Origin: Bacteroidota bacterium
GTDB taxonomy: Bacteria; Bacteroidota; Bacteroidia; 2-12-FULL-35-15
Direction: 5' to 3'
NCBI GenBank assembly: GCA_947447995.1
Contig: CANFLQ010000005.1
Location: forward strand, 1-61,275
Length of the DNA: 61,275 nucleotides
How positions within the stretch are numbered: the stretch's first letter is position 1; each line of letters opens with the position of its first letter. A program made the position numbers and the translations under genes. The notes beneath the pieces were generated by a model that made no database searches, was not told the origin of the DNA, and saw only the letters and a program-made list of their open reading frames with translations. Of this stretch, positions 13,566 through 55,214 are shown one piece after another.

Positions 13566-14444
13566 TTGGAAGCAAAAAAAGTAAATGTTGGATTGGTTCA
13601 GATGAACTGTTCAGCAGACAAAAAAAACAATCTTGAAAAAACAATTTTAAAGATTCGTGAAGCTGCATCAAAAGGTGCAGAAATTATATGTTTACAGGAG
13701 CTTTTTCTATCGCTTTACTTTTGCGATGTAGAAAACTACGATAACTTTGGACTTGCCGAAGCTATTCCCGGACCAACAACAGATGTACTTGGTAAACTAG
13801 CCGCTGAATTGAAAGTTGTTATTATTGCTTCTCTTTTCGAAAAACGTACGCAGGGTATTTATCACAATACAACCGCTGTGTTAGATGCCGACGGCACTTA
13901 TCTAGGAAAATACCGTAAAATGCACATTCCGGATGATCCGGCGTATTACGAAAAATTTTATTTCACTCCCGGCGATTTAGGCTACAAAGTATTTGAAACC
14001 AAATATGCAAAAGTAGGTGTGCTTATTTGCTGGGATCAATGGTACCCTGAAGCTGCCAGAATCACAGCGCTTATGGGGGCAGAAATACTGGTATACCCTA
14101 CCGCTATTGGTTGGGCTACATCGCAAGATGCAGAAACCAACGATGAACAATACAATGCATGGCAAACCATACAACGCAGTCACGCTGTGGCAAATGGAAT
14201 ACATGTGGTATCGGTTAACCGTGTTGGAAATGAGGCCGACATGCAGTTTTGGGGTGGTTCTTTTGTTTCTAACCCTTTCGGGAGATTATTATACAAAGCA
14301 TCGCACGACAAGGAAGAAATTCATGTGCAGGAACTGGACTTAAGCAAAACGGATAGTTACCGCATTCATTGGCCATTCCTCCGCGACAGAAGAATAGACT
14401 CTTATCAGCCTATTACCAAACGCTTTATTGATGAAGATAATTGA
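13566..14444 (+). CDS. aguB: Carbon-nitrogen hydrolase, N-carbamoylputrescine amidase-like
   Basis: Nitrilase triad ICLQELF / YRKMHIPDDP / LICWDQWYPE, adjacent to agmatine deiminase. Start probably TTG 13566 (track 13533). Confidence 0.85.
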   Translation: MEAKKVNVGLVQMNCSADKKNNLEKTILKIREAASKGAEIICLQELFLSLYFCDVENYDNFGLAEAIPGPTTDVLGKLAAELKVVIIASLFEKRTQGIYHNTTAVLDADGTYLGKYRKMHIPDDPAYYEKFYFTPGDLGYKVFETKYAKVGVLICWDQWYPEAARITALMGAEILVYPTAIGWATSQDAETNDEQYNAWQTIQRSHAVANGIHVVSVNRVGNEADMQFWGGSFVSNPFGRLLYKASHDKEEIHVQELDLSKTDSYRIHWPFLRDRRIDSYQPITKRFIDEDN

Positions 14445-14489
14445 TGTGCTGATTAATTGATGTGCTAATGTGCTGATTAATGGATGTGG
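14441..14489. repeat. Family-2 array (GATGTGCTGATT-like)
   Basis: ttgatgtgctgattaattgatgtgctaatgtgctgattaatggatgtgg, overlapping the aguB TGA stop. Confidence 0.8.
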
Positions 14490-14569
14490 ACATTGCAATT
14501 GAATTTTTTAAACGATATAACAATTGGATAGAAAGTTGAATTTTAGAGTTCGTGTGATTTACAAAACAC

Positions 14570-14619
14570 TTTGAACTTTGAACTTTGAACTTTGAACTTT
14601 AAACTTTGAACTTTTGAAC
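14570..14619. repeat. Family-1 heptamer array (TTTGAAC x about 7)
   Basis: tttgaac x4, tttaaac, tttgaac, t-tttgaac. The last unit contains the aguA TTG start. Opposing arm gaaagttgaattttagagttc at 14531-14551. Confidence 0.9.
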
Positions 14620-15663
14620 TTAGATATAACACCAAAACAATTAAATTACCGTTTTCCTGCTGAGTGGGAAAAACACCGTGCTACATGGCTTAGTTGGCCG
14701 CATAAAGTAGAATCGTGGCCTGGAAAAATTGAGAGCATTTACCCGATTTACGCTCAATTTATAAAAGCATTAACTGAAGGCGAACTTGTTTGCATCAACA
14801 TAAACAATGAACAGATAAAAGCTAAAGCTGTTCAGCACTTGGAAAAAAAAAATGTCGATCTAAGTAAAGTATTTTTTTACATTCACCCCACCAACGACGC
14901 CTGGTGTAGAGATCACGGGCCAAGCTTTTTAATTAACCCAAGTGCAGAAAATAAAAAAGTAATTATAGATTGGAATTACAATGCTTGGGGCAATAAATAT
15001 CCTCCATACGATTTGGATGATGTTATTCCAACGCTTATTGGCAATGAGTTTAATATTCCTGTATTTAATCCCGGCATTGTGATGGAAGGTGGCTCTGTTG
15101 AATTTAATGGCAAAGGAACACTGCTTACATCTAAGGCTTGTTTGCTTAACCCAAACAGAAATTCGCATTTGAATCAATCTCAAATAGAAAAATATTTAAG
15201 GGATTATTATTGTATCGATAACATACTTTGGGTAAACGATGGCATTGTTGGTGATGATACCGATGGACATATAGACGACATAACACGATTTGTAAATCAA
15301 GATACAGTTGTTACAGTTGTTGAACAGAACAAAAATGATGAAAATTATTTTATCCTAAAGGAGAATGTTGAACTACTTGAAAAAATGAACGTAGAAAATG
15401 GCAAACAATTAAACATTATCGAATTGCCGATGCCATCACCTGTAATATATGAAGGGCAGCGTTTGCCTGCCTCTTATGCAAATTTTTATATTGGTAATGC
15501 AGCAGTAGTTGTTCCCACATTTCGTGATAAAAACGATGACAAAGCATTGAATATTTTGCAAAAATGTTTCCCTGATCGTAAAGTGATTGGACTAGACTCT
15601 ACCGATATTATCTGGGGATTAGGAAGCTTTCATTGTTTAAGTCAGCAAGAGCCGGCTGTATAA
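14614..15663 (+). CDS. aguA: Agmatine deiminase (peptidyl-arginine deiminase family)
   Basis: RFPAEWEKH, DAWCRDHGP, MEGGSVEFNG, DDTDGHIDD, PASYANFYIGN, GSFHCLSQQEP motifs. Confidence 0.93.
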   Translation: MNLDITPKQLNYRFPAEWEKHRATWLSWPHKVESWPGKIESIYPIYAQFIKALTEGELVCININNEQIKAKAVQHLEKKNVDLSKVFFYIHPTNDAWCRDHGPSFLINPSAENKKVIIDWNYNAWGNKYPPYDLDDVIPTLIGNEFNIPVFNPGIVMEGGSVEFNGKGTLLTSKACLLNPNRNSHLNQSQIEKYLRDYYCIDNILWVNDGIVGDDTDGHIDDITRFVNQDTVVTVVEQNKNDENYFILKENVELLEKMNVENGKQLNIIELPMPSPVIYEGQRLPASYANFYIGNAAVVVPTFRDKNDDKALNILQKCFPDRKVIGLDSTDIIWGLGSFHCLSQQEPAV

Positions 15664-15668
15664 AAAGA

Positions 15669-15813
15669 ACCACTAAGACACTAAGAACGCTAAGGAACAC
15701 TTAGAATTTCTTAAATTTTAGTGGTAAATTTTAATAAAAAAATATTTTTTGTATACAAATAAATCTAAAATATTTTCTTTGTGTTTTCTCTGTGTTCTTA
15801 GTGCCTTAGTGGT
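15669..15813. repeat. 145-bp MITE-like element with 20-bp imperfect terminal inverted repeats
   Basis: accactaagacactaagaac (15669-15688) versus gttcttagtgccttagtggt (15794-15813), 1 mismatch. Arms built from CACTAAG-like units, AT-rich core. Confidence 0.75.
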
Positions 15814-15849
15814 AAAAACTTAATAAAATTTAATACCATTTAATCCATT

Positions 15850-18330
15850 ATGACAGAGCAACTCCCCATCGTAGAAGTTATTCCTGAGATTAAAAAAAAA
15901 TTAGAAGAGCACAACACCCTTATTTTACAAGCCCCACCAGGTGCGGGAAAAAGCACAGTACTTCCACTACAATTATTAAACGAACCTTGGTTGAAAGGTA
16001 AAAAAATTATTATGTTGGAGCCTCGCCGACTAGCAGCTAGGTCTGTGGCAACACGAATGTCGTCCATATTGGATGAACCTATTGGAACAACAGTAGGGTA
16101 TCGTGTTCGCTTTGACAATAAAACAAGTAAACAAACACGTATTGAAGTATTGACAGAAGGAATATTAACCCGCATGTTACAACAGGACAATACATTGGAA
16201 GATGTTGGGTTGGTTATATTTGATGAGTTTCATGAACGCAGCTTGCACGCTGATTTAGCGTTGGCATTGTGCAGAGAGATACAAACTGTATTACGTGAAG
16301 ACCTGCGTATACTTATCATGTCGGCAACACTAGATGGAGAGCAACTTTCAACCTTGCTTGGCAATGCACCTATTTTAACAAGTGAAGGAAGACAATACCC
16401 CATACAACTGTTTTATTTACCGACAGAGAACGATACAAACCTTCCGCTGCAAATGGCAAAGGCTATTCGCAAAGCTCTTACAGAACAAGAAGGTGATGTA
16501 CTGGCTTTTTTACCAGGTGCAGGGGAGATTCAACGCACACAGGAACTATTAGAAAAAGAGATTGGTAACATCAGTATTCATCCTTTGTTTGGCGACCTTC
16601 CGCAACAAAAACAACAGGAAGCCATCATGCCTCATCCGCAAGGAAAACGTAAAGTTGTATTGGCAACCTCCATTGCAGAAACTAGTTTAACAATAGAAGG
16701 CATTAAAATAGTGGTTGACAGCGGCTATTGCAAATCTCCCCGTTTCGACCCTAAAACAGGGCTAACCCGACTAGATACCATCCGCGTTACACAAGATATG
16801 GCAATACAACGAGCAGGAAGAGCTGGACGTTTAGGTCCGGGTATATGTTATCGTTTGTGGCACGAAGCCACACATCAACACTTGTTGGCGCACCGTACTC
16901 CCGAAATTATGGAGGCCGACCTAGCACCTACTATCATTGAACTATCACAATGGGGTACGCATAATATACAGGCATTGGCGTGGCTAAATCCTCCTCCCAA
17001 TGCGGCTGTAACTCAAGCTCAACAATTGCTAGAAGAGTTGCAAGCTATAGAAACCAACAAGATCACCGAACGTGGCAAAGAAATGTTGCGATTGCCAACA
17101 CACCCTCGCATAGCACATTTGCTTTTGGAAGGGAAACATTATGGTTTACTTGCTTTAGCTACAGATCTTGCAGCTGTGTTAGAAGAACGCGATCCCTTAC
17201 AAAAAGATGTCGGCGCCAACATCACCCTACGGATTGAAGCATTACGAAAATGGAGAAATAAAGAATATGTTGTTGCAGATAAAAATACATTGGAACGCAT
17301 TGAGCGACTCGCTTCTCAATGGCGAAAACTATTTTCTATAACTCAGGATAATGCTGCACCTATTGATCAGGATGTAGGCAAACTTGTGGCTGCTGCATAT
17401 CCTGAGCGACTCGCCAAACAAAGAGAACAAAACCATAGATACCGCTTATCAAATGGGAAAATAGCAAAGCTCAATGAACATGATCCTTTGAGCCACGAAA
17501 CTTTTTTAGCAATTGCACAATTGGATGCAGGAACCAATGAAGGTAAAATATACATGGCTGCACCTATCAGCTTAAGCGATATTGAACATTTGGCAACAGA
17601 AAAACGAGTGATTAACTGGGATGCCCAGGCTGGAATATTAGTAGCCAGAAATGAAAAACGTATTGGCGATATTATTCTTGAAAGCAAGCCTTTAAAAATA
17701 ATTCCGGAAGAAGAAAAAGTTAAAATTTTATGTGACGTCGTTCGGAAGGAGGGTTTATCACTTTTTAATCAAACAGAACAGGTACTTGCATGGAAAGCCC
17801 GCATACAAAGCCTCATTAAATGGAAACCGGATGATGGGTGGGACAATTTAAGTGACGAATATTTATTAAATACTCCGGAAGATTGGCTTGGACCACACAT
17901 CAGTAATATAAAAAAACGAGAGGACTTTTTTAAACTTGACCTGTATCAAATTTTAACGGGATTGTTATCTTACCCTCAAACACAGCAACTAGATACGCTC
18001 GCTCCTGCTAAAATAAAAGTGCCAAGTGGTTCAAGCATTGCCATTGATTATCAAACGGATGGAACCAGCCCTGTGTTAGCAGTTCGCTTACAGGAAATGT
18101 TTGGATTACAGGATACTCCAACTGTAAATGAAGGGAAAATAAAAATAACGCTACACCTTCTTTCGCCCGGATACAAACCTGTTCAGGTTACTCAAGATTT
18201 AAAAAGCTTTTGGAAAAACACCTACCAGGAAGTACGAAAAGAATTAAAGATACGTTACAAACGCCATCATTGGCCCGAAGATCCTTGGACAGCCGAGGCT
18301 GTTGCCGGAGCAAAAAAAAGAGGAACTTAA
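15850..18330 (+). CDS. hrpB: ATP-dependent DEAH-box helicase HrpB
   Basis: APPGAGKST, LEPRRLAAR, IFDEFHERSL, MSATL, LATSIAETSLTIEG, QRAGRAGR and the C-terminal HrpB domain (LAVRLQEMFG, ELKIRYKRHHWPEDP). Confidence 0.95.
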   Translation: MTEQLPIVEVIPEIKKKLEEHNTLILQAPPGAGKSTVLPLQLLNEPWLKGKKIIMLEPRRLAARSVATRMSSILDEPIGTTVGYRVRFDNKTSKQTRIEVLTEGILTRMLQQDNTLEDVGLVIFDEFHERSLHADLALALCREIQTVLREDLRILIMSATLDGEQLSTLLGNAPILTSEGRQYPIQLFYLPTENDTNLPLQMAKAIRKALTEQEGDVLAFLPGAGEIQRTQELLEKEIGNISIHPLFGDLPQQKQQEAIMPHPQGKRKVVLATSIAETSLTIEGIKIVVDSGYCKSPRFDPKTGLTRLDTIRVTQDMAIQRAGRAGRLGPGICYRLWHEATHQHLLAHRTPEIMEADLAPTIIELSQWGTHNIQALAWLNPPPNAAVTQAQQLLEELQAIETNKITERGKEMLRLPTHPRIAHLLLEGKHYGLLALATDLAAVLEERDPLQKDVGANITLRIEALRKWRNKEYVVADKNTLERIERLASQWRKLFSITQDNAAPIDQDVGKLVAAAYPERLAKQREQNHRYRLSNGKIAKLNEHDPLSHETFLAIAQLDAGTNEGKIYMAAPISLSDIEHLATEKRVINWDAQAGILVARNEKRIGDIILESKPLKIIPEEEKVKILCDVVRKEGLSLFNQTEQVLAWKARIQSLIKWKPDDGWDNLSDEYLLNTPEDWLGPHISNIKKREDFFKLDLYQILTGLLSYPQTQQLDTLAPAKIKVPSGSSIAIDYQTDGTSPVLAVRLQEMFGLQDTPTVNEGKIKITLHLLSPGYKPVQVTQDLKSFWKNTYQEVRKELKIRYKRHHWPEDPWTAEAVAGAKKRGT

Positions 18331-18341
18331 TTAACAAAAAA

Positions 18342-18367
18342 ATCCTCCCGAAATCAATCGGAAGGAT
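18342..18367. terminator. Probable bidirectional intrinsic terminator between convergent hrpB and DUF1573
   Basis: Stem atcctcccga / tcggaaggat with a 6-nt loop and a 5' A-run (a U-tract on the minus strand). Confidence 0.6.
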
Positions 18368-18401
18368 CTAAAAATTTTAATACAAACTTATAAAACAAAA
18401 A

Positions 18402-18857
18402 CTAGTGTTCCGCAGGAGTTGCTGTAACTGATGGTGTTGCTACTGGAGTAGCATCTGGTTTTACCACACCTTTAATTTTAATTACTTTAGATGGTGTATC
18501 TGCATTTGAAGTTAATGTAACTGTTTTTTCAAATGAACCTACTCTATCTGTAGCGTAACGAACTTTAATTACAGCTGAAGCTCCAGGTTTGATTGGTTCT
18601 TTAGGCCATTCTGGAGTTGTGCACCCGCAAGAGCCAACAGCATTGGAAATAATTAAAGGCTCCTTCCCAATATTTTTAAATTTAAACTCACGGTAAGGAT
18701 CAGCATTGTGTTCAATAGTACCATAATCAACAACCTCTGATTCAAATTTAAATTTGGGAGCATTTGGATTTACAGGATTTGGAGTAGTTGTTTCTTGTGC
18801 ATTTACAGCGGCCGCAACGCATAGCATTAAACCGATTGATAAGATTGCTTTTTTCAT
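18402..18857 (-). CDS. DUF1573 domain secreted protein
   Basis: Signal peptide, F.FKN.GKEPLIISN..GSCGCTTP motif, Pro/Thr-rich tail. Confidence 0.88.
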   Translation of the reverse strand: MKKAILSIGLMLCVAAAVNAQETTTPNPVNPNAPKFKFESEVVDYGTIEHNADPYREFKFKNIGKEPLIISNAVGSCGCTTPEWPKEPIKPGASAVIKVRYATDRVGSFEKTVTLTSNADTPSKVIKIKGVVKPDATPVATPSVTATPAEH

Positions 18858-18918
18858 TTTTTTACGTTTTTATTGTTTATTTTAATTTTATTATCTAATT
18901 ATTATTTTATTTATATTC

Positions 18919-19404
18919 TTAATGTTTCTCAAATGGAGTTGCTCCATTATCCGTTTTTTTGCCAATAGGAAAAACTTCTTCTGTAACCTCAGCTTGAACA
19001 TTGCCTTTTATGGTTAATACATCTACATGTTTTTTTGAATTGGAATTAATTGTAACCGTTTTCATAAAATTACCTACACGTTTTGTATCGTAAGTAACTT
19101 TAATTACCTGTGTTTCACCTGGTTTAATTGGAATGTTTTTAGGATACGTAGGAACGGTACACCCGCAAGATCCCTTTGCATCGGTAATAATCAATGGCTC
19201 TGTACCTGTATTTTTAAATTTAAACTCGTATGATCCATTGCCTGCAAATTCTATTGAACCAAAATCATGCGAATCTTTTTCAAAAGTCATTTCGGCATCT
19301 GTAATATGAGGTGCGGCTGCAACAACCAAATTTGAGGGCACTTGAGCTAATACAGCTGTACTTAAAAATAAAAGAGATGATACTGTAAAAATAAATTTCT
19401 TCAT
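18919..19404 (-). CDS. DUF1573 domain secreted protein (tandem paralog)
   Basis: Signal peptide, HDFGSIE...FKFKNTGTEPLII..AKGSCGCTVP motif. Confidence 0.88.
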   Translation of the reverse strand: MKKFIFTVSSLLFLSTAVLAQVPSNLVVAAAPHITDAEMTFEKDSHDFGSIEFAGNGSYEFKFKNTGTEPLIITDAKGSCGCTVPTYPKNIPIKPGETQVIKVTYDTKRVGNFMKTVTINSNSKKHVDVLTIKGNVQAEVTEEVFPIGKKTDNGATPFEKH

Positions 19405-19497
19405 GTTTGTTATAAATTTTATCTTCTTAAAAATTTACAGTTAAAAACTTAACTATAATCGTGCCAAAATTAAAAAAAAGCGGAAAAATAATTTTAG

Positions 19498-19505
19498 TAA
19501 CTTTG
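19498..19505 (+). promoter_or_regulatory. Bacteroidota -7 element (TAACTTTG) upstream of valS
   Basis: Exact TAnnTTTG about 38 bp before ATG 19543. Confidence 0.6.
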
Positions 19506-19542
19506 CTCCTCTTTTTTGAGGAAACTAATTACGGAAATTATT

Positions 19543-22236: not shown

Positions 22237-22254
22237 TTTTTTTATAGTACATTT

Positions 22255-22289
22255 ACTAATAACTAACCACTAATAACTAATAACTAAAT
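22255..22289. repeat. Family-3 heptamer array (ACTAA[TC][AC] x5)
   Basis: actaata actaacc actaata actaata actaaat, then c-ATG at 22291. Confidence 0.8.
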
Positions 22290-22290
22290 C

Positions 22291-22572: not shown

Positions 22573-22592
22573 GTTCCTTTATTATTGATATT

Positions 22593-27562: not shown

Positions 27563-28086
27563 CTAATCTTATTTTTTTCAATTAAGTCCATTTCGGCAAA
27601 GGTTGTATTATAGCCATTAGGTACAAAAATTGGATCGTAACCAAACCCTTTTACTCCTCTCTTAACATCTATAATAACTCCATTTACAATTCCTTCAAAC
27701 TGAGTTTCTTTACCGTCAATAATCAACGATATAACCGTTTTAAAACGAGCGTTTCTATTACTTATACCTTTAAGTTCATTCAATAATTTATTCATATTAT
27801 CATCTGCATTTTTGCTTTCTCCAGCATAACGTGCTGATAATACACCTGGTTTACCATCTAATGCTTCAACTTCCAATCCTGTATCATCTGCAAAACAATT
27901 AAAATGATAATTGTTATATATATAAAATGCTTTTTGTGAAGCATTTTTTTCAATAGTAGGCTCTGTTTCAGGAATTTCTTCCAAACAGTTAATATCCTTT
28001 AAACTCAGCAATTGTATATCAGAGGATATTAACTCCTGTATTTCATTTACCTTATTTTTATTTGCTGTAGCGAATACTAATTTCAT
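27511..28086 (-). CDS. rdgB: Non-canonical purine NTP pyrophosphatase (HAM1/RdgB)
   Basis: [48 protein letters not shown] motifs. Confidence 0.95.
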
Positions 28087-28092
28087 ATTTTA

Positions 28093-28206
28093 TTGATGTG
28101 CTTTTGTTAATGTGCTGATTTATTGATGTGCTGATTATCGATTAATTAATTTGCTGATTAATCGGTTGCTAAAACTTTAAACATTTGAACTCTCTAACGT
28201 TGAACT
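28093..28206. repeat. Composite array: family-2 arm (28093-28160) plus family-1 arm (28171-28206)
   Basis: ttgatgtgct...atgtgctgatt x2...ttgctgatt, then aaactttaaacatttgaactctctaacgttgaact. It fills the whole gap between the PKD stop and the rdgB start. Confidence 0.8.
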
Positions 28207-31200
28207 AATTTATAACAAACCGCTTTACAAACCTTTGTCCATCGTATACTACAACAAAAGAATAAACTCCTTTTTCTATTCCTTTTAAATTAACCGTAAT
28301 TAACTGAAGTCCTTCAGCAACAGTTCCTGAATGCACTAATCCCAAGGATTGTCCTCTGCTATTATAAACAGTAACATCTAAATTATTAGTAGCCGGAATT
28401 AATACGGGTAAAGTTAGTACTTCCCCTGCTGGTACAGGGTAAGGAGCTAACACTTCAAAAGTAGATTTATCAATAGCTGTACAACTTTCGTTATCTGATG
28501 AATCTGAATCATTTATATTGTTAGGTTTTACAGCCGATACACAAACAAAACGCTTTGAATCTTTCATATAAATAGACGTAGTTATTGTATCTAATACTAC
28601 TCCTCCCCTTAACAATAATCCTGTCCAATGCTCTTTTAAAGCTGTACCATCGTTAATTTTTATTGTAATATCTAATGATGTAACATCAACTGTTCCTTTA
28701 TTTACCAATAAAGCTTGTACTGTCATAAATTGATTATTAAGTAGTGTTGTTACACTCTGAACGGCAATATTTACAATAGGTAGTAGCACTTCAATTGTTT
28801 GTATGCTAGTATCGGCACAACCGTACTGGCTTATTGCTATTAATGACACCTTATAGCTTCCTGTATCAGTATAAACGGTATGTGTATTTTGCAAAGTATC
28901 GGTATTCGTATTGCCTAGTGCCCAAGTATATTTAACTGCACCTAAACTAGTATTGATAAAATTAACATTTAATGGAGGTGCTCCATTATTAGGAGTTGCT
29001 GTGTAAGTAGCAACAGGTGTTGAACGTACAACAATAGTTTTAGAAATTGAATCTTTACAGCCTTGATTGGAAGTAACTAGTAATTTTACTTGTGGAGTAA
29101 CGGCGGTAATAAAAGTGTACGCATTATTTTTTACTATGGATGTAGCCCCTCCTGCACCATACGTCCACAGCCTATTTGCTATACTTCCAGACGAAATAAG
29201 TGAGGTGTCAGAAAAAATTGCAGGCAATCCAACGCATACATTACCTACAGTATATAACGCTTTTGGCAAAGGATTTATAGTTAACGTTTGAGTGTTAATA
29301 TTGCTACAGCCATTATTGGCAGTTATTGTATGCGTTAAAATATATTTACCACTGGCAGCGTAGGTATGAATAGGATTTATTAATGGTGTAATTGCACTAT
29401 TATCACCAAAGTCCCATGCTCCAAATTGTATTGCCATGGTTGGCAATACAGTAGTAATATCCGTAAATATTATTGCTTGTTTTTCGCAAAGCAAGGATGT
29501 TGAATACTTAGTAACCGGAGAAGGTTGTATAAGGACTTGTTTATTAATAGTTGTAATACAACCAAAAGTATTTTGAATTGTTAAGGATACTGTATATGTT
29601 GCTGCATTTGCATAAAAATGTTTAGGGTTTTGAAGATTTGAGATAAAACCAGGGCCTGCAAATGGTTCACCAAAACTCCATCCCCATTGTGTTATTGGAT
29701 AACCATAAGTGGCGGCTGTACCGTTAAATAAAACGCTATCCCTTTCACATAAATTACTTACAATAAAATTGGGTTGAGGATATGGTGCAATAGTAACCTT
29801 TTTTGACAATGAAGCAGAACAACCCACATTGCTTATTACTGTAAGTTTAGCTGTATAAGATCCTGTGTCTGCGTAAGTATATGAAGGCGATGAGATATTT
29901 GAAGTAAGTGATGCGTCACCAAAATCCCAAATCCTAGAAACTATGCTATTACCTAAAGGGGGACTAGAAGCATCTGTAAATTGAGTAGTACTACCAATAC
30001 ATGTTGTTGGTGTTATTGAAAAATTGGCTGTTGGCGCTACTCCAGAAATTCCAATATTAACAGTATCTTTTTTTATACAGCCATTAATACTTGTTGCCGT
30101 TACGGAATATTGCCCTGCTACTGAAACAGGTAACGAACTATTGGTAGATCCATCCGACCAAACATAAGATGCAGCTTGCATAGCACCTGATTTTAAAAAG
30201 ATAGGATTGCCAGCACAAAAATTAGTATCGGGACCAAGGGAGGCTGTAATAGGGAAATTATCCCGCAACACATCTATAGTGTCGGAATGTATACAACTAT
30301 TGGCATCTTTAATTTTTACAAAATATTGTCCTGACTGAGTAATTGTGTATACACTATCAACAGAATTGTCTTGCCATTGAAATGTATATAATGATTTTGG
30401 ATATTTTGTGTTCCACACTATTGATTTCCCAAAACAAAAAACAGTTGTTTTGGGAATATTTATATCAAAAGGAAGTGAAACTATAATTGTATCGCTTGAA
30501 GAATATCCAAACTGATCTACTACATCTACCCAATATTTGCCACTTTTTGAAATATTTATAGTAGGTGTTGTTTCACCAGTTGACCATAAATAGGAAGAAT
30601 AACTATATTTAGATTTGATATTTAATATACTACAAAAAGAATTATTTGGCAAAATGGTATCATTTCCTAAATTAACAGGGGGAGAATACTTTAATCGCAA
30701 ATAATTTTCAACACGTTCACGATCTATTTTAGATAAGCTTTTATCATAAATTATAAACTCTGCAATTTGAAATTTTGCATAAAAGCTACCAAAACTACTT
30801 GCGTACCTGCCTAATGCTTGTTGAATTCCAGGAGAAACAGGCAATTGGGCATTACCTGCACTCGTTGTAATATCTGTGCCATTTTTCCAAACCTGACTTG
30901 CCGAATTAATACCATTTATTGATATGAAAGCCCAATTATTTAATGTTAACAAGTCCCTATCAACAACATAATTAGATCCACTATTTTTTTGAATTCTTAA
31001 TCCGCCATTTAATTGTGATGTTAATTCCAAATTCAAATAACCAGCATTTGAACCAAAAATACCTCCATTTTTACTTTCCTTTAATTTTACAAGTGCGAAT
31101 ATGGAAAGACTAGATAAGTTATCTAACAACCCTGAAGGCATTAACATAAATGAATTACTGCCATTAAATTCCAAAACAGGTTTTCCATTTATTACATTTG

Positions 31201-45429: not shown

Positions 45430-45476
45430 CGTTTTTAATGTAATTTAGTGATTCCATTTTACAATGTGTAATAATA

Positions 45477-46817: not shown

Positions 46818-46826
46818 AAAACAAGC

Positions 46827-47447: not shown

Positions 47448-47448
47448 T

Positions 47449-48207
47449 ATGTTCCGACCAAGAGTGATACCCGTTCTGCTTTTAAAAAATCAAGGACTGG
47501 TAAAATCAAAAGCCTTTAAAGATTATAAATACATTGGTGACCCAATTAATGCGGTTAGAATATTTAATGATTTTAAAGCTGATGAATTGGTTTTTTTGGA
47601 CATAGATGCTAGCAAAGAAAACAGATTGATTGACCTTAATTTTGTTAAAAATGTAGGTGAAGAAGCCAATATGCCTTTTGCTGTTGGCGGAGGAGTACGT
47701 TCCTTAGAAGACATTCATAAAATAATTACCGCTGGTGCCGAAAAGGTTGTTATTGGGAGCTATGCTGCCAAAAATCCTGATTTTATACAAGAGGCGGCTG
47801 ATGCATTTGGCTCCTCCACCATTGTTGTTTGCTTAGATGTTAAAAAGAAATTTTTCGGCGGCGCACAAACGTGGATACTTAACGGAAGTAAATCTACAGG
47901 ATATTCACCCATTGCTTTTGCCCAACTAATGCAACAAAAAGGAGCCGGAGAAATTATTATTCAATCTATTGAAAAGGACGGAATGATGACAGGATATGAT
48001 ATTGCCTTGATAAAATCAATATCGGAAGCAGTAAGCATTCCCGTGATAGCTTTGGGTGGAGCAGGAAACCTGAGTCATTTGCAAGAAGCATATTCTCAAG
48101 CATATGCAAACGGCTTAGCTGCTGGCAGTATGTTTGTTTACCAAGGCGTTAAACAAGGTGTATTGATTACATATCCTGAAAAAGTTGACTTTAATTTTAA
48201 ATATTAG
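47449..48207 (+). CDS. HisF-like cyclase (AglZ/HisF2/WbuZ-like)
   Basis: RPRVIPVLLL, YIGDPINAVRIFN, ADELVFLDI, GGGVRS, IPVIALGGAG, AAGSMFVY are the glycan-locus HisF2 pattern. ATG at 47449. Confidence 0.88.
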   Translation: MFRPRVIPVLLLKNQGLVKSKAFKDYKYIGDPINAVRIFNDFKADELVFLDIDASKENRLIDLNFVKNVGEEANMPFAVGGGVRSLEDIHKIITAGAEKVVIGSYAAKNPDFIQEAADAFGSSTIVVCLDVKKKFFGGAQTWILNGSKSTGYSPIAFAQLMQQKGAGEIIIQSIEKDGMMTGYDIALIKSISEAVSIPVIALGGAGNLSHLQEAYSQAYANGLAAGSMFVYQGVKQGVLITYPEKVDFNFKY

Positions 48208-48249
48208 AAAAAAATTAATCGATTAAAACTTCCTATTCATATATAAATA

Positions 48250-48257
48250 TACCTTTG
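48250..48257 (+). promoter_or_regulatory. Bacteroidota -7 element (TACCTTTG) upstream of the amidotransferase
   Basis: Exact TAnnTTTG about 56 bp before ATG 48314, in a 106-bp gap. Confidence 0.5.
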
Positions 48258-48313
48258 CTCAAAATAATTAAAAGGCAACACTAAACTGCAAAAAAATTAA
48301 TATTACTAAATTA

Positions 48314-49435
48314 ATGTACAACAAAAAAACAGAATACCAACAATGTAATCGCTGCGTAATGGATACGAGCGATGTTGCAATTGTATTTGACGAAAAAGGC
48401 AATTGCAATCATTGTAACAGGTATTTCGAAAAGCTAGAAAAACAAACCTACCAAGGAAAGATAAGTGATGAGCAATTACTAGAATTGGTTAAAAAAATAA
48501 AAAAAGATTCTAAAAACAATGACTACGATTGTGTAGTTGGAATTAGCGGCGGGGTAGATAGTTGTTACACGGCTTATTTACTAAAAAAAATAGGATTAAA
48601 ACCCTTGGCTGTTCATTTAGACAATGGTTGGGATTCGGAAGCCGCAGTAAAAAATATCAAGTATGTAGTAGGTAAATTAGGTATCGATTATCAAAGTTAT
48701 GTGCTAGATTGGGAAGAGTTTAAAGACCTGCAACTGGCATTTCTTAAAGCATCGGTACCTGAAGCTGAAACACCAACCGACATTGCTATTTTGGCTGCTT
48801 TGCACAAAGTAGCTAATGAAAACAACATTAAATACATCATAAGTGGTGGTAATTACGTTACAGAAGGCATACTGCCAAAAAGCTGGCATTACAACGCCAA
48901 AGATTTTAAATACCTTAGCTCCATTCACAAACAATTTGGCAAAAAAAAGCTACGCACCTTCCCTACTTTCGGCTTTTCAACCGAAATGTATTACAAATAC
49001 ATCAAAGGCATCAAAATAGTTTATTTACTCAATTATGTAAGCTTCAGCAAGCGAGATGCTATGGCATTGCTTGAAAAGGAGTTAGACTGGAAATATTACG
49101 GAGGCAAACATTACGAATCAAAATACACCGGATTTTTACAATCTTATATCTTACCCGTAAAATTTAATATTGATTACAGACGAGCCACCTTTTCTACCCA
49201 AATTTGCGCTGGCGAAATGTTGCGCGCAGAAGCCTTGGAAGAGTTAAAGCAAGTATCCTACCACTCAATAAAGGTTCAAGAAGAGATGGAATACCTGTGT
49301 AAAAAATTAGGCATATCCATTCAAGCATTTACCGATATAATGAACCTTCCCCCTAAAACACACAAAGATTATCCTAACGATGAAGCTCTTCTGGAGTTTA
49401 TTTATGAGGTATATCGTAAACTGAATAGAAAATAG
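48314..49435 (+). CDS. N-acetyl sugar amidotransferase (WbuX/WbpG/PseA-like)
   Basis: N-terminal CNRCVMD...CNHC, PP-loop ISGGVDS, HLDNGWDSE, YYGGKHYES motifs. Confidence 0.88.
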   Translation: MYNKKTEYQQCNRCVMDTSDVAIVFDEKGNCNHCNRYFEKLEKQTYQGKISDEQLLELVKKIKKDSKNNDYDCVVGISGGVDSCYTAYLLKKIGLKPLAVHLDNGWDSEAAVKNIKYVVGKLGIDYQSYVLDWEEFKDLQLAFLKASVPEAETPTDIAILAALHKVANENNIKYIISGGNYVTEGILPKSWHYNAKDFKYLSSIHKQFGKKKLRTFPTFGFSTEMYYKYIKGIKIVYLLNYVSFSKRDAMALLEKELDWKYYGGKHYESKYTGFLQSYILPVKFNIDYRRATFSTQICAGEMLRAEALEELKQVSYHSIKVQEEMEYLCKKLGISIQAFTDIMNLPPKTHKDYPNDEALLEFIYEVYRKLNRK

Positions 49436-49442
49436 TTTTAAC

Positions 49443-51311
49443 ATGTGCGGAATTGCAGGATATTACAGCAATAACAGTTCGTTTTCAGAAACAGAATTAA
49501 AGGCGATGACCAATACTCTTGCTCATCGGGGACCTGATGCCAAAGGATATTTTATTGACGATACAATAGGCTTGGGACATAGACGATTAAGCATCATTGA
49601 TATATCAGCGTCTGCCAATCACCCTATGATATCGGGATGCGGGAGATATATTATCATTTACAACGGAGAGGTTTATAACTTCAAAGAAATTGCATTTCAA
49701 CTTAAACAACTTAAACCTTCTTTAAATTTTAAAACTACCTCCGATACCGAAGTTATTATAGAAGCCTTTACTCATTGGGGGGAACAATTTATTGAACAAC
49801 TTAATGGAATGTTTGCTTTTGCTATTTATGACAAAATAAATAAAGAATTATTTATTTATCGCGATAGACTAGGTATTAAACCCATTTATTATTTTTGGGA
49901 TGAAAACAATTTTATTTTCGCCTCCGAATTAAAATCCTTAAAGCAATTAAAAAACAAAATTAACTTTAAGATTAACCCTTTAGCTATCAACGAATTTTTA
50001 CACCTCGGATATATTCCTGAGCCTCATTCTATATACGAGAACATTCATAAACTACCATCGGGAACCTATTTTAAAATAAAGGGTAATCGTCTGATAAAGT
50101 GCCAATATTGGAATGCTCGGGATAAAATACAACCACAAATAGAAACCAACTTTACAAATGCCAAACAAACATTAACAAACTTAATCGAATCTTCGGTAAA
50201 ATACCGAATGGTAAGCGATGTACCTTTTGGAACATTTTTAAGCGGAGGCATCGATTCTAGTTTAGTAACTGCTGTAGCCCAAAAATTTTCTGACCAACCT
50301 ATCAATACCTTTTCAATAGGCTTCAAAGAAACAAAACAGAACGAAGCCGGATTTGCTAAAAATGTTGCCAAGCACTTAAAAACAAATCACTACGAATGGA
50401 TAGTTACTCAAAAAGAAGCCCTAAATCAGGTAAGTCAATTACCCGAAATTTATGATGAACCTTATGCCGATTCATCAGCAATCCCCACTTTAATTGTTTC
50501 ACAATTTGCAAAAAAGTATGTTAAAATGACCTTATCCGGCGATGGGGGTGATGAATTATTTATGGGGTACGGAGCTTACAAATGGGCTAAACGCCTTGCA
50601 ACCCCTTTACTTAATGTATTAGGAAAACCATTAGCTATGGGCTTATCAACGAGGGGTGAAAAATATAGAAAAGCAGAAGAACTGCTTAAATACAAAGATC
50701 CTGGTACTTTAAAAAGTCATATATTTTCACAAGAACAATCTCTGTTTTCAAGACAAGAAATAAAAAACTTAGTTCATCCCAATTTTTATACAGGAATCAA
50801 CCTGAATGAAAATTATGAAAACTTAAATCGCACTTTATTGCCTGAAGAACAGCAAGCCTTGTTCGACATTAATTATTATTTAAAAGATGATTTGTTAGTA
50901 AAAGTAGACAGAGCAACTATGCACCATTCATTAGAAACCAGAGTGCCCTTACTAGATTATCGCTTAGTAGAATTTGCACTCAATTTATCACCCAGCCTTA
51001 AACTTAAAAACGGAGAAGCTAAATATTTATTAAAACAAGTATTGTATGAATATGTACCAAAAAAACTGTTTGACAGACCCAAACAAGGGTTTTCAATACC
51101 TTTGGCAGATTGGCTTAAAAATGATTTACGATTTTTAATAGAAGATTATTTATCAGAAAAAACGATCAAAAAACACGGGATTGTTAATTATGAAATTGTT
51201 GCCGAATTAAAAAAACAATTTCTTATAAACAACAACAACTTTCTTTATAATAAAATATGGCTGTTGATAGTGTTACACCAATGGCTGGAAGCCAGTGTGC
51301 TGATTGCTTGA
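49443..51311 (+). CDS. asnB: Asparagine synthase (glutamine-hydrolysing)-type amidotransferase
   Basis: MCGIAG (Ntn Cys2), HRGPD, LGHRRLSIID, YNGEVYN, FLSGGIDSS, LSGDGGDELF, ETRVPLLD motifs. Confidence 0.93.
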   Translation: MCGIAGYYSNNSSFSETELKAMTNTLAHRGPDAKGYFIDDTIGLGHRRLSIIDISASANHPMISGCGRYIIIYNGEVYNFKEIAFQLKQLKPSLNFKTTSDTEVIIEAFTHWGEQFIEQLNGMFAFAIYDKINKELFIYRDRLGIKPIYYFWDENNFIFASELKSLKQLKNKINFKINPLAINEFLHLGYIPEPHSIYENIHKLPSGTYFKIKGNRLIKCQYWNARDKIQPQIETNFTNAKQTLTNLIESSVKYRMVSDVPFGTFLSGGIDSSLVTAVAQKFSDQPINTFSIGFKETKQNEAGFAKNVAKHLKTNHYEWIVTQKEALNQVSQLPEIYDEPYADSSAIPTLIVSQFAKKYVKMTLSGDGGDELFMGYGAYKWAKRLATPLLNVLGKPLAMGLSTRGEKYRKAEELLKYKDPGTLKSHIFSQEQSLFSRQEIKNLVHPNFYTGINLNENYENLNRTLLPEEQQALFDINYYLKDDLLVKVDRATMHHSLETRVPLLDYRLVEFALNLSPSLKLKNGEAKYLLKQVLYEYVPKKLFDRPKQGFSIPLADWLKNDLRFLIEDYLSEKTIKKHGIVNYEIVAELKKQFLINNNNFLYNKIWLLIVLHQWLEASVLIA

Positions 51312-51434
51312 TATGCTGATGTGCTAATTAACTAATAAGATGATCTAATACTACTTTATGATACGGTATTAATAACGATAAGTTAATGTATTTAATAATC
51401 GAAAATCAGCACATTAGTAATCAGCACATCAATT
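51295..51434. repeat. Inverted pair of family-2 arms between convergent stop codons
   Basis: gtgtgctgattgcttgatatgctgatgtgctaatt (51295-51329) versus aatcagcacattagtaatcagcacatcaatt (51404-51434). Confidence 0.85.
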
Positions 51435-52776
51435 AAACTCCCAACTTCTTCTTAAATTTTTGTTCGTACAAATACCTTAGTACAAATAAACTAGATACAA
51501 AAAACGGAATACACGGTATTTTTAAACGAACTAATGAGCCAAAATTAGAAGTAGCTATCCCAACAGAAAAGGCAAAGAATAGAGAAAAAATTACAGAAAA
51601 TAACAACAATGGCTTTTCACCAATCAACGTAAAAAATCCGAAAAACTTCAATCTAATTAGCAGTAATAAAGTTAACACCATTATATATGTATTTTCAAGA
51701 GCAGAAAGAAGCATTACCGGATTGCGAGCATCTAACAAGGTTGGTCTAAACAATGTAGCAGCGATGGCTAAATGCGCCTTGCTGGCAATACTACCAGCAG
51801 AAGCATCAAACTCACCAATATCAAAACTATTACCTCCATAATACTCACTTTTTTGATCTTTGTTAGAAATTACAGCTTTAGTTAATACCTTATCAACCGA
51901 ATAATCGCCTAAGGTATCACCCAACTTTGTTAAAATAAAAAAACCTACGCCAACTCCTATTGCAATAAAAAATGGTGCTAAAAATAACCTTAAAAATTTA
52001 CTCTTCACGTTTACCAAGCGTTGGTTTGCTAACCAAATAACAGAACCAGGAAGCAATGCAAACAAAATATACGGTTTAATTAACACTAATAATAGGGAAG
52101 AAATGAAAATAAAAAAAATGTATTTTATCTTGTAATTTTTCTTAACAAAAAAAACATAAAAATAATAGGTATACCAACCCACTGCGGAAAGTGTAATGGT
52201 ATCTTTTAGTAAACCTGAGCCCCAAAAAACTACCGATGGAATAAATAAAATTGAAATGGCAAATTGCTTCTCCAATGCAGGAAATTCTTCATTAAATAAT
52301 AGGAACAAACGCCAAATCCCTGTGTAACAAATCCAAGCTAAAAGTATAGAAGAAACCATAAAACTTTGAAAGGAAACCATAATCAGAGGAACAATCAAAC
52401 GAACAACCACCATAGCTTGTTTATCGAACATCATGTAACAATAACCTGTTTTATTATCAAAAACACTATAATTTTCCCAAGTAGTATTTCCCTTCATTAT
52501 GTCAAAAAAAACAGTGGGATTTTTACCAAATAATTTTACCAACGCCTGAGATGACATAAAATAATTTACAGTATCCCCGTCCTTATAATAAAACTGGTAT
52601 ATTAAACAAACTGCAATGGCACCAAAACATTTAACAATCAAACCGCGGGTATACCATTTATACAATGGCTGTTGCTGTTCATTTTTTTTACGAATATAAT
52701 TTCCAACAAAAAAAATAAACAATAAAAGAAAAGGAGTAAACAATAAATCGAAAATAGTAAGTACAAACGTATTCAT
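51433..52776 (-). CDS. Polytopic membrane protein, Wzy/polymerase-like
   Basis: About 11 TM segments with periplasmic loops (GDTVNY, FWGSGLLKDT, NFGSLVRLK), within the glycan locus. Function inferred from topology and context. Confidence 0.6.
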   Translation of the reverse strand: MNTFVLTIFDLLFTPFLLLFIFFVGNYIRKKNEQQQPLYKWYTRGLIVKCFGAIAVCLIYQFYYKDGDTVNYFMSSQALVKLFGKNPTVFFDIMKGNTTWENYSVFDNKTGYCYMMFDKQAMVVVRLIVPLIMVSFQSFMVSSILLAWICYTGIWRLFLLFNEEFPALEKQFAISILFIPSVVFWGSGLLKDTITLSAVGWYTYYFYVFFVKKNYKIKYIFFIFISSLLLVLIKPYILFALLPGSVIWLANQRLVNVKSKFLRLFLAPFFIAIGVGVGFFILTKLGDTLGDYSVDKVLTKAVISNKDQKSEYYGGNSFDIGEFDASAGSIASKAHLAIAATLFRPTLLDARNPVMLLSALENTYIMVLTLLLLIRLKFFGFFTLIGEKPLLLFSVIFSLFFAFSVGIATSNFGSLVRLKIPCIPFFVSSLFVLRYLYEQKFKKKLGV

Positions 52777-52802
52777 TTAAGTATTTTTGCTGTAATTAGT
52801 AA

Positions 52803-52810
52803 CAAAAATA
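52803..52810 (-). promoter_or_regulatory. -7 element (TATTTTTG) upstream of the Wzy-like gene
   Basis: Exact TAnnTTTG on the minus strand about 27 bp before the start. Confidence 0.5.
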
Positions 52811-52871
52811 ACACAATGTTTGACGAATTTAGCCAAATATAACTTTTGTAGCAACAATTAAATTTAAAAAA

Positions 52872-54110
52872 ATGAATGTTATCTATATATCTTATGACGG
52901 AATGACCGACCCTCTAGGGCAATCACAAGTGATTCCCTATTTGATTGGGTTAACAAAAATTGGGCATACAATAGCCATCATAAGCTGTGAAAAAAAAGAT
53001 AATTTTGAAAAACATCAGTCATTTATTAAACAGTTATTACAGGTCAATACTATTAACTGGCATCCTGTCCCTTACTCATCATTACCTTCTATATTATCCA
53101 AGCAAATTAACCTATTCCGTATTCAACAAAAAGCAAATCAACTTTATAAAATAAACAACCCAGATATAATACATTGTCGAAGTTATATGGCAGCATTGGT
53201 TGGAAATACGTTAAAAAACAAATACGGTGTTAAATTTATTTTTGATATGCGCGGCTTTTGGGCCGATGAGCGCGTTGATGGGCATATATGGGATTTAAAA
53301 AAAACGATACATCAAAAGGTCTACCATTTTTTTAAGAAAAAAGAATTGGAATTTCTACAAAATGCCGATCACACCATCAGTTTAACTCAAAATGCCAAAG
53401 ACGAAATTTTAAGTTGGACTTCATTAAAAAACAAATCCATTCCAATAACCATTATTCCCTGCTGCGTTGACCTTAATCTTTTTACAACTAAAAATATTGC
53501 CCCTACTCATCAACAAAATATAAAAATTCAATTAAATATAAGTCCCGATGATTTTATAATATCATACCTAGGTTCTATCGGAACATGGTATATGTTGGAA
53601 GAAATGCTGGATTTTTTTAAACTACTTACTTCCAAATATAAAAATGCAAAGTTCCTTTTCATTACGCAGGATAATCAACAACACATTTTCTCACTAGCTG
53701 CAAGTAAGGGAATTTCTAAAAAACGGCTTATCATTCATTCAGCATCAAGAAATGAAGTGCCAATATATTTGAGTATTTCTCATTTATCTATATATTTTAT
53801 AAAACAAGCCTATTCTAAAAAAGCCTCCTCCCCCACCAAAACAGGAGAAATAATGGCAATGGGCATTCCTATAATCACCAATTCAGGAATTGGCGATAGT
53901 GATAAAATTATTTCGGAATCAGGAGCTGGTGCACTGATAAATAGCTTTACAGAAAAGGAATACCTTCGTATAATTGAACAAATTGACGTACTTTTAAAGT
54001 CGGATAAAACAAAAATAAGAGATGCGGCATTTAAGTACTTTTCACTTGAAAACGGAGTTGAATTGTATGATGATGTTTATGAGAAAGTAATAAACATTGA
54101 ACGCAGATGA
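52872..54110 (+). CDS. GT4 glycosyltransferase
   Basis: YISYDGMTDPLGQSQV, IHCRSY, FDMRGFWADER, YLGSIGTWY, SSPTKTGEIMAMG motifs. Confidence 0.88.
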   Translation: MNVIYISYDGMTDPLGQSQVIPYLIGLTKIGHTIAIISCEKKDNFEKHQSFIKQLLQVNTINWHPVPYSSLPSILSKQINLFRIQQKANQLYKINNPDIIHCRSYMAALVGNTLKNKYGVKFIFDMRGFWADERVDGHIWDLKKTIHQKVYHFFKKKELEFLQNADHTISLTQNAKDEILSWTSLKNKSIPITIIPCCVDLNLFTTKNIAPTHQQNIKIQLNISPDDFIISYLGSIGTWYMLEEMLDFFKLLTSKYKNAKFLFITQDNQQHIFSLAASKGISKKRLIIHSASRNEVPIYLSISHLSIYFIKQAYSKKASSPTKTGEIMAMGIPIITNSGIGDSDKIISESGAGALINSFTEKEYLRIIEQIDVLLKSDKTKIRDAAFKYFSLENGVELYDDVYEKVINIERR

Positions 54111-54177
54111 CGCAGAAAAAAAAATTTAAAAGAATTTCGATAACTAAAGCCAACTTTAAACTTTGAAACTTTGAACT
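54101..54177. repeat. Composite array: ACGCAGATG 9-mer arm over the GT4 stop plus a family-1 arm over the galE start
   Basis: acgcagatgacgcaga (54101-54116) and caactttaaactttgaaactttgaact (54151-54177). Confidence 0.7.
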
Positions 54178-55214
54178 TATTAAAAAACACCGTACTAGTT
54201 ACAGGAGGAGCTGGATACATTGGCTCTCACACCATTATTGAATTACTGGAAAATACCAATTTCAATATTATTTCCATTGATAATTATTCCAACTCTTCAG
54301 CTAAAACATTTGATAGAATTGAAAAAATAACCGGCAAAAAAGTACGCAATTACAATGTAGACATTTGTAATAAACAAGAGCTATCTAACATTTTTGAAAC
54401 AGAGAAAAATATTGTAGGAATTATTCATTTCGCAGCCTTTAAATCAGTACCCGAATCAGTATATAACCCCTATAAATACTACAACAACAACATAAATTCA
54501 TTATTAAATATACTGGAATGTTGTTTAAAATTTAATATCGATAATTTTATTTTTTCTTCTTCATGTTCTGTTTATGGCAATATCAACCAATTGCCTGTAA
54601 AGGAAAACACTCCGTTTAGTAATGCCGAATCGCCTTATGCTGCTACCAAACAAATGGGAGAAACAATACTTAAAGATTACAACAACGCATACCCTCAATT
54701 GCAAAGTATCGCCTTGCGTTATTTTAACCCTGTGGGTGCTCATATTTCAGGATTGATTGGTGAAGATCCAATCAACAAACCTACCAGCTTAGTTCCTGTT
54801 ATTACACAAACTGCTATTGGAAAAATAAAACAAATGACGGTACATGGCACCACTTACACTACAAGAGACGGCTCCTGTATTCGAGACTATATACACGTTA
54901 CCGACATTGCCATTGCACACACCAAGGCTTTGGAATACATCATTCATAAAAAACAAAAAAGCAATTATTCCATTTTTAATTTAGGAACAGGCAATGGTGT
55001 TAGTGTTTTGGAAGCCATTCATGCTTTTGAAAAGATCGGCAACAAAAAATTAAATTACACAATAGGTCCAAAAAGAGAAGGTGATGTTGAAGCCATTTAT
55101 TCCGACACAACGCTATCTGAAAAAGAATTGGGCTGGAAAACCAAATTCAATTTGAATCAAATGATGGAAAGTGCTTGGAAATGGGAGTTACAATTGGCTA
55201 AGGAGATGTGCTGA
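54171..55214 (+). CDS. galE: UDP-glucose 4-epimerase
   Basis: VTGGAGYIGSH, IHFAAFKSV.ES, FSSSCSVYG, YAATK, LRYFNPVGAH, IRDYIHV motifs. Confidence 0.95.
   Translation: MNLLKNTVLVTGGAGYIGSHTIIELLENTNFNIISIDNYSNSSAKTFDRIEKITGKKVRNYNVDICNKQELSNIFETEKNIVGIIHFAAFKSVPESVYNPYKYYNNNINSLLNILECCLKFNIDNFIFSSSCSVYGNINQLPVKENTPFSNAESPYAATKQMGETILKDYNNAYPQLQSIALRYFNPVGAHISGLIGEDPINKPTSLVPVITQTAIGKIKQMTVHGTTYTTRDGSCIRDYIHVTDIAIAHTKALEYIIHKKQKSNYSIFNLGTGNGVSVLEAIHAFEKIGNKKLNYTIGPKREGDVEAIYSDTTLSEKELGWKTKFNLNQMMESAWKWELQLAKEMC

Follow-up and report, generated by a model that had tools for sequence, protein, structure and literature searches.

In the 61,275-nucleotide (nt) stretch of DNA analysed here (the window), which is contig C5 of a metagenome-assembled Bacteroidota genome (3.08 Mb, 34% G+C, 207 contigs; labelled G000), arrays of tandem repeats with units of 7 or 8 nt end exactly at the coding termini of neighbouring genes, and provide some of these genes with their stop or start codon. 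The arrays are members of families that occur throughout the genome, singly or as inverted pairs. An earlier note, made from the window alone, had pointed to six stop codons and two TTG start codons at or within repeat units. All eight junctions are present, and both TTG codons lie inside TTTGAAC units (Table 1). The further claim of the note, that the arrays land exactly at coding termini and remodel them, is borne out for the tails of AguB, GalE and AsnB, and for the starts of galE and aguA. As to how the arrays came to lie there, we cautiously favour the view that they arise or insert in intergenic DNA, turn over fast and are filtered by selection, with survivors that lie flush with the genes and some units that become codons.

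The gene names used in the note agree with Pfam matches, namely CN_hydrolase for AguB, PAD_porph for AguA, Asn_synthase for AsnB, Epimerase for GalE, PKD domains and a type IX secretion system (T9SS) tail for the PKD gene, and glycosyltransferase families 4 and 1 for GT4. The exception is the Wzy-like open reading frame (ORF), for which there is no Pfam match. The nearest named relatives of GalE are from uncultured Bacteroidetes/Bacteroidia genomes. Comparisons were made with a sister species (G010) and with a member of a different family (G030), and for single genes with L013 and further members of the genus.

Repeat families

Family A forms an 8-nt lattice of TGATGTGC / TGATTWWT units, with cores that are 8, 16 or 24 nt apart. 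Every A unit begins with TGA, and the 8-nt period places a stop codon in all three frames. Family B is built from the heptamer AACTTTR (AACTTT[GA]), forms 94 arrays of at least two units genome-wide, and holds a TTG followed by AAC in every unit. Family E, with the heptamer TAACTAW (TAACTAA/TAACTAT), behaves like B and forms 32 arrays genome-wide. One E array is located in the window, and the E unit is close to the published TAACTGA. About 3-5% of the spacers carry arrays.

The word TGTGCTGATT occurs nine times in the window, against 0.15 copies expected. Genome-wide, there are 137 copies of ATGTGCTGAT (about 7 expected) and 82 copies of AACTTTGAACTTT (about 0.5 expected). Although ORFs make up 85% of the genome, 100 of the 137 ATGTGCTGAT copies lie outside long ORFs. 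Lone TTTGAAC is not enriched in the window (18 copies, 19 expected); the signal resides in the tandem arrays. Tandem Repeats Finder identifies period 7 as a common class (307 arrays; 359 for period 9), with RAACTTT at the top of the list of 6-9-nt units, and assigns this period to the arrays at 14568-14621 and 54152-54178. The motif C at the GT4 stop codon has only four copies in the genome, and is a weak item among the junctions. A de novo search for 8-mers enriched beside stops and starts was dominated by A/T-rich words of low complexity, and a literature search for the exact unit strings returned no relevant paper.

Within the genus, the distribution is patchy. A units number 67 in G000, 41 in G002, 33 in G017 and 23 in G010, and many genomes have 0-2. 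For B units, the counts are 113 in G010, 69 in G000 and 42 in G054. Such a distribution fits fast turnover. The note had spoken of "arms", as if the arrays belonged to one element. This is not supported by an all-against-all BLAST comparison of array-masked spacers, which revealed no core common to A or B spacers; an unrelated palindromic family in about six spacers was all that they shared. It is a separate dispersed element of about 70-130 nt with 75-98% identity, which is found alongside A arrays in six G000 spacers (C33:10849-11056, C146:799-1057, C108:7447-7665, C40:16662-16990, C50:15107-15220 and C46:8287-8473). The longest A arrays, with 17 and 10 units, are located at contig ends (G000 C67:15842-16254 and C82:12482-12735) and have adjoining sequence in common. 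They are probably the two sides of a single spacer in which the assembly broke.

Stop codons from A units

An A core is present no more than 45 nt after the stop codon of 32 genes, and in 19 of these the stop falls exactly on the TGA position of the lattice (p = 5e-10). When stops inside arrays are left out, the count is 15 of 28 (p = 2e-7). Among the 1781 ORFs of at least 200 amino acids, in which 20 lattice stops were scored, TGA accounts for 11 of the lattice stops (55%), but for only 8.0% (143/1781) of stops overall (p = 8e-8). Every one of the 11 TGA stops beside A arrays falls on the lattice. The TGA enrichment implies that a substantial share of these stops is repeat-derived.

Alignments with orthologs provide a view of the termini, and array-free AguB and GalE do end differently. 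AguB ends in FIDEDN in the window and in FIDED in G030, which has no A array, while the G010 protein ends in FIDEE, encoded ahead of a TAA that is followed by an A array. The GalE C-terminus is ..WKWELQLAKEMC (..LAKEMC) in the window, ..ELELQK in G010, where there is no array, and ..EQMQTKE in L013. AsnB ends in ..WLEASVLIA, and its orthologs in ..LIVLH[KQ]WL with 4-6 variable residues added. Outside the window, two A units code for the tail of ORF C26:314-949 in both sister species (LVDVLMC in G000, LVDMLMC in G010).

Other termini are unaltered by the adjacent repeats. In the PKD protein, the Por_Secre_tail (T9SS sorting) profile can be followed in full up to residue 1077 of 1078, which means that there was no remodelling of the C-terminus. 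Three orthologous spacers have the same native stop and C-terminus (SVWDL, CMIQ and GHY) in G010 and G000. An A array adjoins these stops in G010, and nothing, a different repeat or a B' array in G000. Judged from the alignments, C-terminal remodelling is real but small, and amounts to 0-4 residues in variable, non-conserved tails. Together with the intact T9SS domain, this fits the suggestion of the note that there has been selection for insertions that keep the termini functional.

Start codons from B units

B arrays are found upstream of 49 genes. For 40 of these, an ATG follows 3-25 nt after the array, in the pattern ..AACTAAAA..ATG. A TTG is called as the start in the other nine, of which two have an ATG 10-12 codons downstream. 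The remaining seven, aguA, galE, metG, hisS and three others, have no plausible alternative.

The orthologs of galE carry an ATG at the same codon in 26 other cases (16 wider orthologs and 10 members of the genus; M-N/S-..K-T-I-L-V-T-G-G), and only G000 and G010 have TTG AAC in the last B unit, where the TTG has taken the place of the ancestral ATG. In aguA, both G000 and G010 have ATA at the codon of the ancestral ATG, which is seen in G030, and an in-frame TTG AAC TTA within the last B unit, four codons upstream. As the PAD_porph profile begins at residue 13 of AguA, the start must be this TTG or, less likely, the ATA. For aguA and galE, no canonical start codon other than the TTG is present ahead of the conserved N-terminal residues. 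The essential metG gene has a TTG within the end of a heptamer array in eight species, half of the genus (G000, G004, G005, G008, G010, G012, G014 and G022), whereas other members of the genus have an ATG and no B-type array. The case for repeat-derived start codons, as read from these comparisons, is well supported and goes further than the earlier note did, and TTG would be the codon that is actually used for initiation. A further unit family is found at the metG junction of L133 (G025), where a CAGAATT heptamer array runs in frame upstream of the ATG (ATT CAG AAT TCA GAA TTC AGA ATT CAG AAT).

Position of arrays relative to genes

For position counts, gene boundaries were approximated by the longest ORF, and the expected values are those for arrays placed uniformly along each spacer. 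The 5' end of A arrays is within 10 nt of a gene 3' end in 28 of 47 cases (4.2 expected) and of a gene 5' end in 11 of 31 cases (2.5 expected), while the 3' end of A arrays is never that close to a gene 3' or 5' end (about 4 and 2.7 expected, respectively). For B arrays it is the 3' end that lies within 10 nt of a start (32 of 67, 7.0 expected) or, in antisense orientation, of a stop (20 of 31, 3.7 expected). E arrays follow the B pattern, with 11 of 19 at starts (2.2 expected) and 6 of 7 at stops in antisense (1.6 expected). Each family thus abuts genes with one outer end only, A with the 5' end, B and E with the 3' end, 5- to 7-fold above the uniform expectation, and the same array end adjoins both stops and starts on either strand. 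None of the 31 tRNA genes has an abutting array, a number too small to tell an association with translation boundaries from one with gene boundaries of any kind.

Orthologous spacers and hairpins

We compared 116 orthologous spacers of G010 and G000, for which the flanking proteins have a median identity of 83%. Arrays are present in neither genome in 91 spacers, in both in 11, in G010 only in 11 and in G000 only in 3, so that 14 of the 116 spacers are array-bearing in one genome only. The number of units varies between the two genomes at orthologous spacers. In contingency loci, changes in unit number within a population switch a reading frame or promoter on and off; units of 7 and 8 nt that lie outside the reading frame would not shift the coding sequence.

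Inverted pairs (A..A', B'..B) turn the whole spacer into a hairpin. The mean fold z score of spacers with paired arrays is -4.6 (n=29), compared to -2.0 (median -1.0) for 80 array-free spacers. In the window, the pair between the convergent asnB and Wzy-like genes folds in this way (minimum free energy -26.0, z -3.3), and G010 carries a B'..B hairpin in the spacer orthologous to the one with the last B array of Table 1.

The empty counterparts of hairpin-filled spacers are tiny. Filled spacers of 134, 143 and 40 nt have partners of 3-5, 16 and 0-2 nt, respectively. In G000 C2, the junction reads TAAattATG (3-5 nt), where G010 has a B'..B hairpin of 134 nt. The C-terminus of the upstream protein, ..LVKAN, is unchanged, but the downstream gene begins with ATG AAA GAA GAA (MKEE..) in G000 and with TTG AAC TTT AAA (MNFK..) in G010. 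In G000 C83, TAAATG faces a 38-nt insertion in G010, and both termini are unchanged. The third pair consists of a 16-nt spacer in G000 C23 and 143 nt in G010. With empty sites of this size, an inserted hairpin array necessarily touches both genes. As the units contain TGA and TTG, small overlaps then give working codons.

At one junction, G010 has two GC-rich hairpins (C15:116494-116608) that resemble repetitive extragenic palindromic (REP) elements, and G000 C83 has an A..A' pair, next to ORF 2640-3626. Different hairpin-forming repeats therefore replace one another. A further short-repeat family, AGATTACAAATTGCAGATT / GATTGCAAATTGCAGATT, is found in both sister species (G000 C148:3200-3360; G010 L098, L104). 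In G000, it lies against a stop codon whose G010 counterpart is abutted by an A array. In G030 (L003), the aguB-aguA spacer contains inverted arrays of the GTTGTT/AACAAC type from 2 nt after the TGA (2385-2477). Such hairpins, built of short units peculiar to each species, may be a general feature of the class.

Repeats in the window

Table 1. Repeat arrays of the window and their relation to coding termini
Feature	Positions	Strand	Relation to coding sequence
A array, lattice TGATGTGC/TGATTAAT	14442-14490	+	Opens with the aguB stop TGA (14442-14444); first unit includes the last aguB codon AAT and the TGA; junction aat-TGA-tgtgctgatt
B array, 7.6 copies of ACTTTGA/TTTGAAC	14568-14621	+	Last unit (14613-14619) holds TTG 14614-14616, the predicted aguA start
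ATA codon of aguA	14626-14628	+	Site of the ATG start in G030 (ATG ACC CCA AAA)
E array	22255-22287		
A array	28091-28160	+	5' end about 7 nt from the ATG (28084-28086, minus strand) of a Ham1-family gene; antisense to this gene
B-type units aactttaaacatttgaac...gttgaac	28172-28204	+	Abut the stop of the PKD/T9SS gene (minus strand; TAG 28205-28207, then ttcaac)
A units	51296-51330	+	Overlap the asnB end (gtg ctg att gct TGA), encode VLIA and supply TGA 51309-51311
A units, inverted partner of 51296-51330	51401-51432	-	Directly after the TAA (51433-51435) of the Wzy-like gene (minus strand; TAA, then ttgatgtgctgatt)
Motif C, GAACGCAGATGACGCAGA	54099-54116	+	Contains the GT4 stop TGA 54108-54110; gene end gaa cgc aga TGA
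B array, 3.7 units	54152-54178	+	Last unit (TTTGAAC, 54170-54176) holds the galE start TTG 54171-54173
A units	55205-55243	+	Overlap the galE end; G-ATG-TGC-TGA encodes MC, stop 55212-55214
B array	57649-57683	+	Directly after the TAA of the upstream ORF 55436-57652

Origin of the arrays

According to the explanation that we favour, arrays would appear in intergenic DNA, by insertion or by formation in place, frequently where the spacer between two co-directional genes is very short, and would turn over fast. Selection would remove the copies that harm a gene, and the survivors would either end flush with the coding sequence or enter only dispensable terminal codons. Where the edge of an array comes to lie over the last or first codons, the TGA of a unit may become a working stop, and the TTG of a unit a working start. 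The process that generates the arrays could be slippage, inverted duplication or insertion.

Several observations sit uneasily with this explanation. The longest-ORF proxy overstates how close arrays are to gene 5' ends. Stops are found at the first lattice position 14 times, and one or two units in only 4 times, so that fusion in a random frame is insufficient without extra selection. Single arrays in co-directional spacers favour the sense orientation, with ratios of 24:7 for A (p = 0.003), 31:12 for B (p = 0.005) and 17:5 for E (p = 0.017). This bias ties A mainly to stops, and B and E mainly to starts, and points to a constraint or function linked to transcription or translation, beyond a simple filter. 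Nor do short spacers account for single arrays, which lie flush with a gene at one end only and have about 110-130 nt of other DNA beyond the other end. Finally, the interior of orthologous spacers has diverged while the arrays in them have kept close to the consensus of their family, a difference that suggests homogenisation or purifying selection.

The one-sided position of single arrays, the sense bias, the retention of the consensus and the preference for first-position stops keep alive a functional reading, with A as 3' trailer and B and E as leaders, and we regard it as a tentative possibility. B and E arrays would then be leaders for Shine-Dalgarno-independent initiation, which offer either an AU-rich landing site or a binding site for S1, a Csp-like protein or another RNA-binding protein, and A arrays would be trailers with a role in termination, stability or processing. 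The flush position would be a requirement, and the use of TTG and TGA a matter of design. In agreement with this reading, the distance from the end of a B or E array to the ATG is typically 3-15 nt, the TTG of a unit serves the essential metG and hisS genes, and the same idea has been put forward for TAACTGA repeats (MacGregor 2015, PMC4679880). However, only a small share of the spacers has arrays, and in close relatives these genes are expressed in the absence of any array. In antisense orientation, too, the arrays adjoin gene ends, and the families are patchy within a single genus. There is no signature of selection at the RNA level, where neither fold energies nor G.U pairs of the hairpins indicate a sense-strand advantage (A 6 vs 8, B 5 vs 11), and an Rfam scan of the window matched no family. 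In addition to the filtering by selection that we favour, it is plausible that B and E arrays have a secondary role as leaders that are AU-rich and do not depend on Shine-Dalgarno pairing. The Bacteroidota promoter has a -7 element TAnnTTTG. A reading of the B arrays as promoters was rejected, since by eye the unit spacing does not match.

The earlier note had proposed targeting linked to translation boundaries. Under such a scheme, arrays would be placed at the termini by an enzyme or a mobile element that detects either the stop and start codons themselves or the translation machinery located there. The zero-spacer junctions TAA|TTGATGTGCTGAT and TGA|TGTGCTGAT are indeed frequent, an array of G010 follows immediately on a TAA at a site that has no array in G000 (L098 vs C15), and TAA is found beside many array ends, as a possible target duplication. 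Against this, TAA is too common at 34% G+C to be taken as evidence, abutment is independent of boundary type and of gene strand, and the tiny empty spacers (0-16 nt) already account for the flush position. Targeting is thus not needed, and we consider it distinctly improbable. With no conserved core between the array spacers and no clear terminal inverted repeats, the arrays are not classical miniature inverted-repeat transposable elements, and the TAA at array junctions does not allow a target-site duplication to be deduced. An alternative with more far-reaching consequences is that the arrays are a lineage-wide class of portable translation-boundary modules, in which a lattice with TGA in every frame is combined with a site for Shine-Dalgarno-independent initiation that has a TTG of its own. 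They would insert at zero-length or overlapping operon junctions, uncouple or re-couple cistrons and in time replace the native ATG or TAA of essential genes, and their 7-8-nt code would be read by a dedicated nucleic-acid-binding protein. This alternative appears improbable to us.

It might also be argued that repeats rich in stops and starts merely delimit any ORF that enters them. With stops in all frames and a TTG in the units, a longest-ORF caller sets its boundaries there, as illustrated by two of the nine TTG calls, for which a more suitable ATG lies 10-12 codons further on. The argument has also been raised for TAACTGA repeats (PMC4679880). However, alignment with orthologs defines the termini without recourse to ORF calling and largely refutes this objection, and both the flush position and the enrichment of TGA are very far from random. 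We therefore judge an artefact of chance or annotation to be very improbable.

Relation to known repeats

REP units are imperfect palindromes of 20-40 nt that are mobilised by the REP-associated tyrosine transposase (RAYT) they flank. REP elements and their hairpin-forming doublets (REPINs) are extragenic, often occur as inverted pairs, form hairpins just downstream of stops, and reach tens to hundreds of copies. REP elements, the bacterial interspersed mosaic elements (BIMEs) that contain them, and REPINs are said to have been treated together with RAYTs by Bertels and Rainey in 2011. The arrays described here are likewise short extragenic repeats with inverted-pair hairpins, but a REP/REPIN assignment was rejected, as the units of 7-8 nt are non-palindromic and tandem, and not imperfect palindromes of about 20-40 nt. 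A link to RAYTs was also rejected, because the six PF01797 (Y1_Tnp) genes of the genome are flanked by other, GC-containing palindromes, without A or B units. These RAYT-like genes are located at C4:49691-50188, C32:4171-4713, C172:2627-3220, C111:7405-8163, C25:29754-30347 and C74:11683-12216. Each has palindromes of its own (for example gctcctacggagc, gtcgggattgcaaatcccgac, cggcatagcgtcccgctatgtcg and gcgcagatttgtaatctgcgc), which would amount to several REP/RAYT systems in one small genome.

In integrons, the cassette gene runs up to or into the attC recombination site with its stop codon, and there is almost no untranslated spacer. This is an analogy only: the window has no cassette-like organisation, though no search for an integrase gene was made, and gene order is conserved with array-free relatives. 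The short tandemly repeated repetitive (STRR) sequences of cyanobacteria, reportedly described by Mazel and coworkers in 1990, are said to be families of tandem heptamers with about 100 copies per genome in non-coding DNA. They resemble the heptamer arrays in being tandem, but differ in phylum and in units, and we know of no described relation of STRR to coding termini.

The closest published counterpart in kind is the TAACTGA heptamer, found as direct repeats in Beggiatoaceae, Cyanobacteria and some Bacteroidetes, with about 170 sets in one genome (MacGregor 2015, PMC4679880; statements on this paper refer to the sections considered here). These repeats have from two to many copies, are mostly intergenic and mostly forward, and lie a few nt upstream of starts. 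Thirteen sets overlap the upstream stop, because forward repeats have stops in all three frames, and a few reverse copies are located just after stops. Distribution is patchy, no transposition machinery was found, and other heptamer repeats are mentioned for Bacteroidetes spacers. The arrays of G000 are likewise 7-nt tandem direct repeats in many sets, forward and near starts. However, the units are AACTTTG/AACTTTA and TAACTAA/TAACTAT, which share only the AACT core with TAACTGA. Compared to those sections, three features differ: the unit itself supplies the TTG start (metG, hisS and galE), inverted pairs that form spacer-wide hairpins are common, and an octamer-lattice family specialised at 3' ends accompanies the heptamers.

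Heptamers of the types GGGNATC and GGGGA(C/T)T are abundant in Xanthomonas and Nostoc, with variable unit number. According to the abstract, they are over-represented between co-directional ORFs, less than 50 bp from the stop in sense or upstream in antisense orientation (Rehm et al. 2015, PMC4692102). These repeats are G-rich and form quadruplexes, whereas the AT-rich units described here cannot, and in contrast to our findings the abstract does not mention units as start or stop codons. Within the abstract of PMC4692102 and the sections of PMC4679880 considered, there is no description of an octamer lattice of the A type, of TGA enrichment, or of a recurrent change from ATG to the TTG of a unit in essential genes. 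With these differences, the arrays are a local variant of a known, poorly understood class of repeats, and not a boundary-seeking system.

Significance

For annotation, the results mean that start and stop calls beside such arrays are error-prone, and that the predicted true start of several essential genes is a TTG in a repeat. In a genome in which only 8% of the stops are TGA, this rare stop marks genes that end inside a repeat. With respect to evolution, non-coding simple repeats can overwrite the start and stop codons of housekeeping genes without lethal effect, and repeatedly within a single genus. The TTG starts of metG and galE are a testable case of repeat-borne initiation, in a phylum without Shine-Dalgarno pairing.

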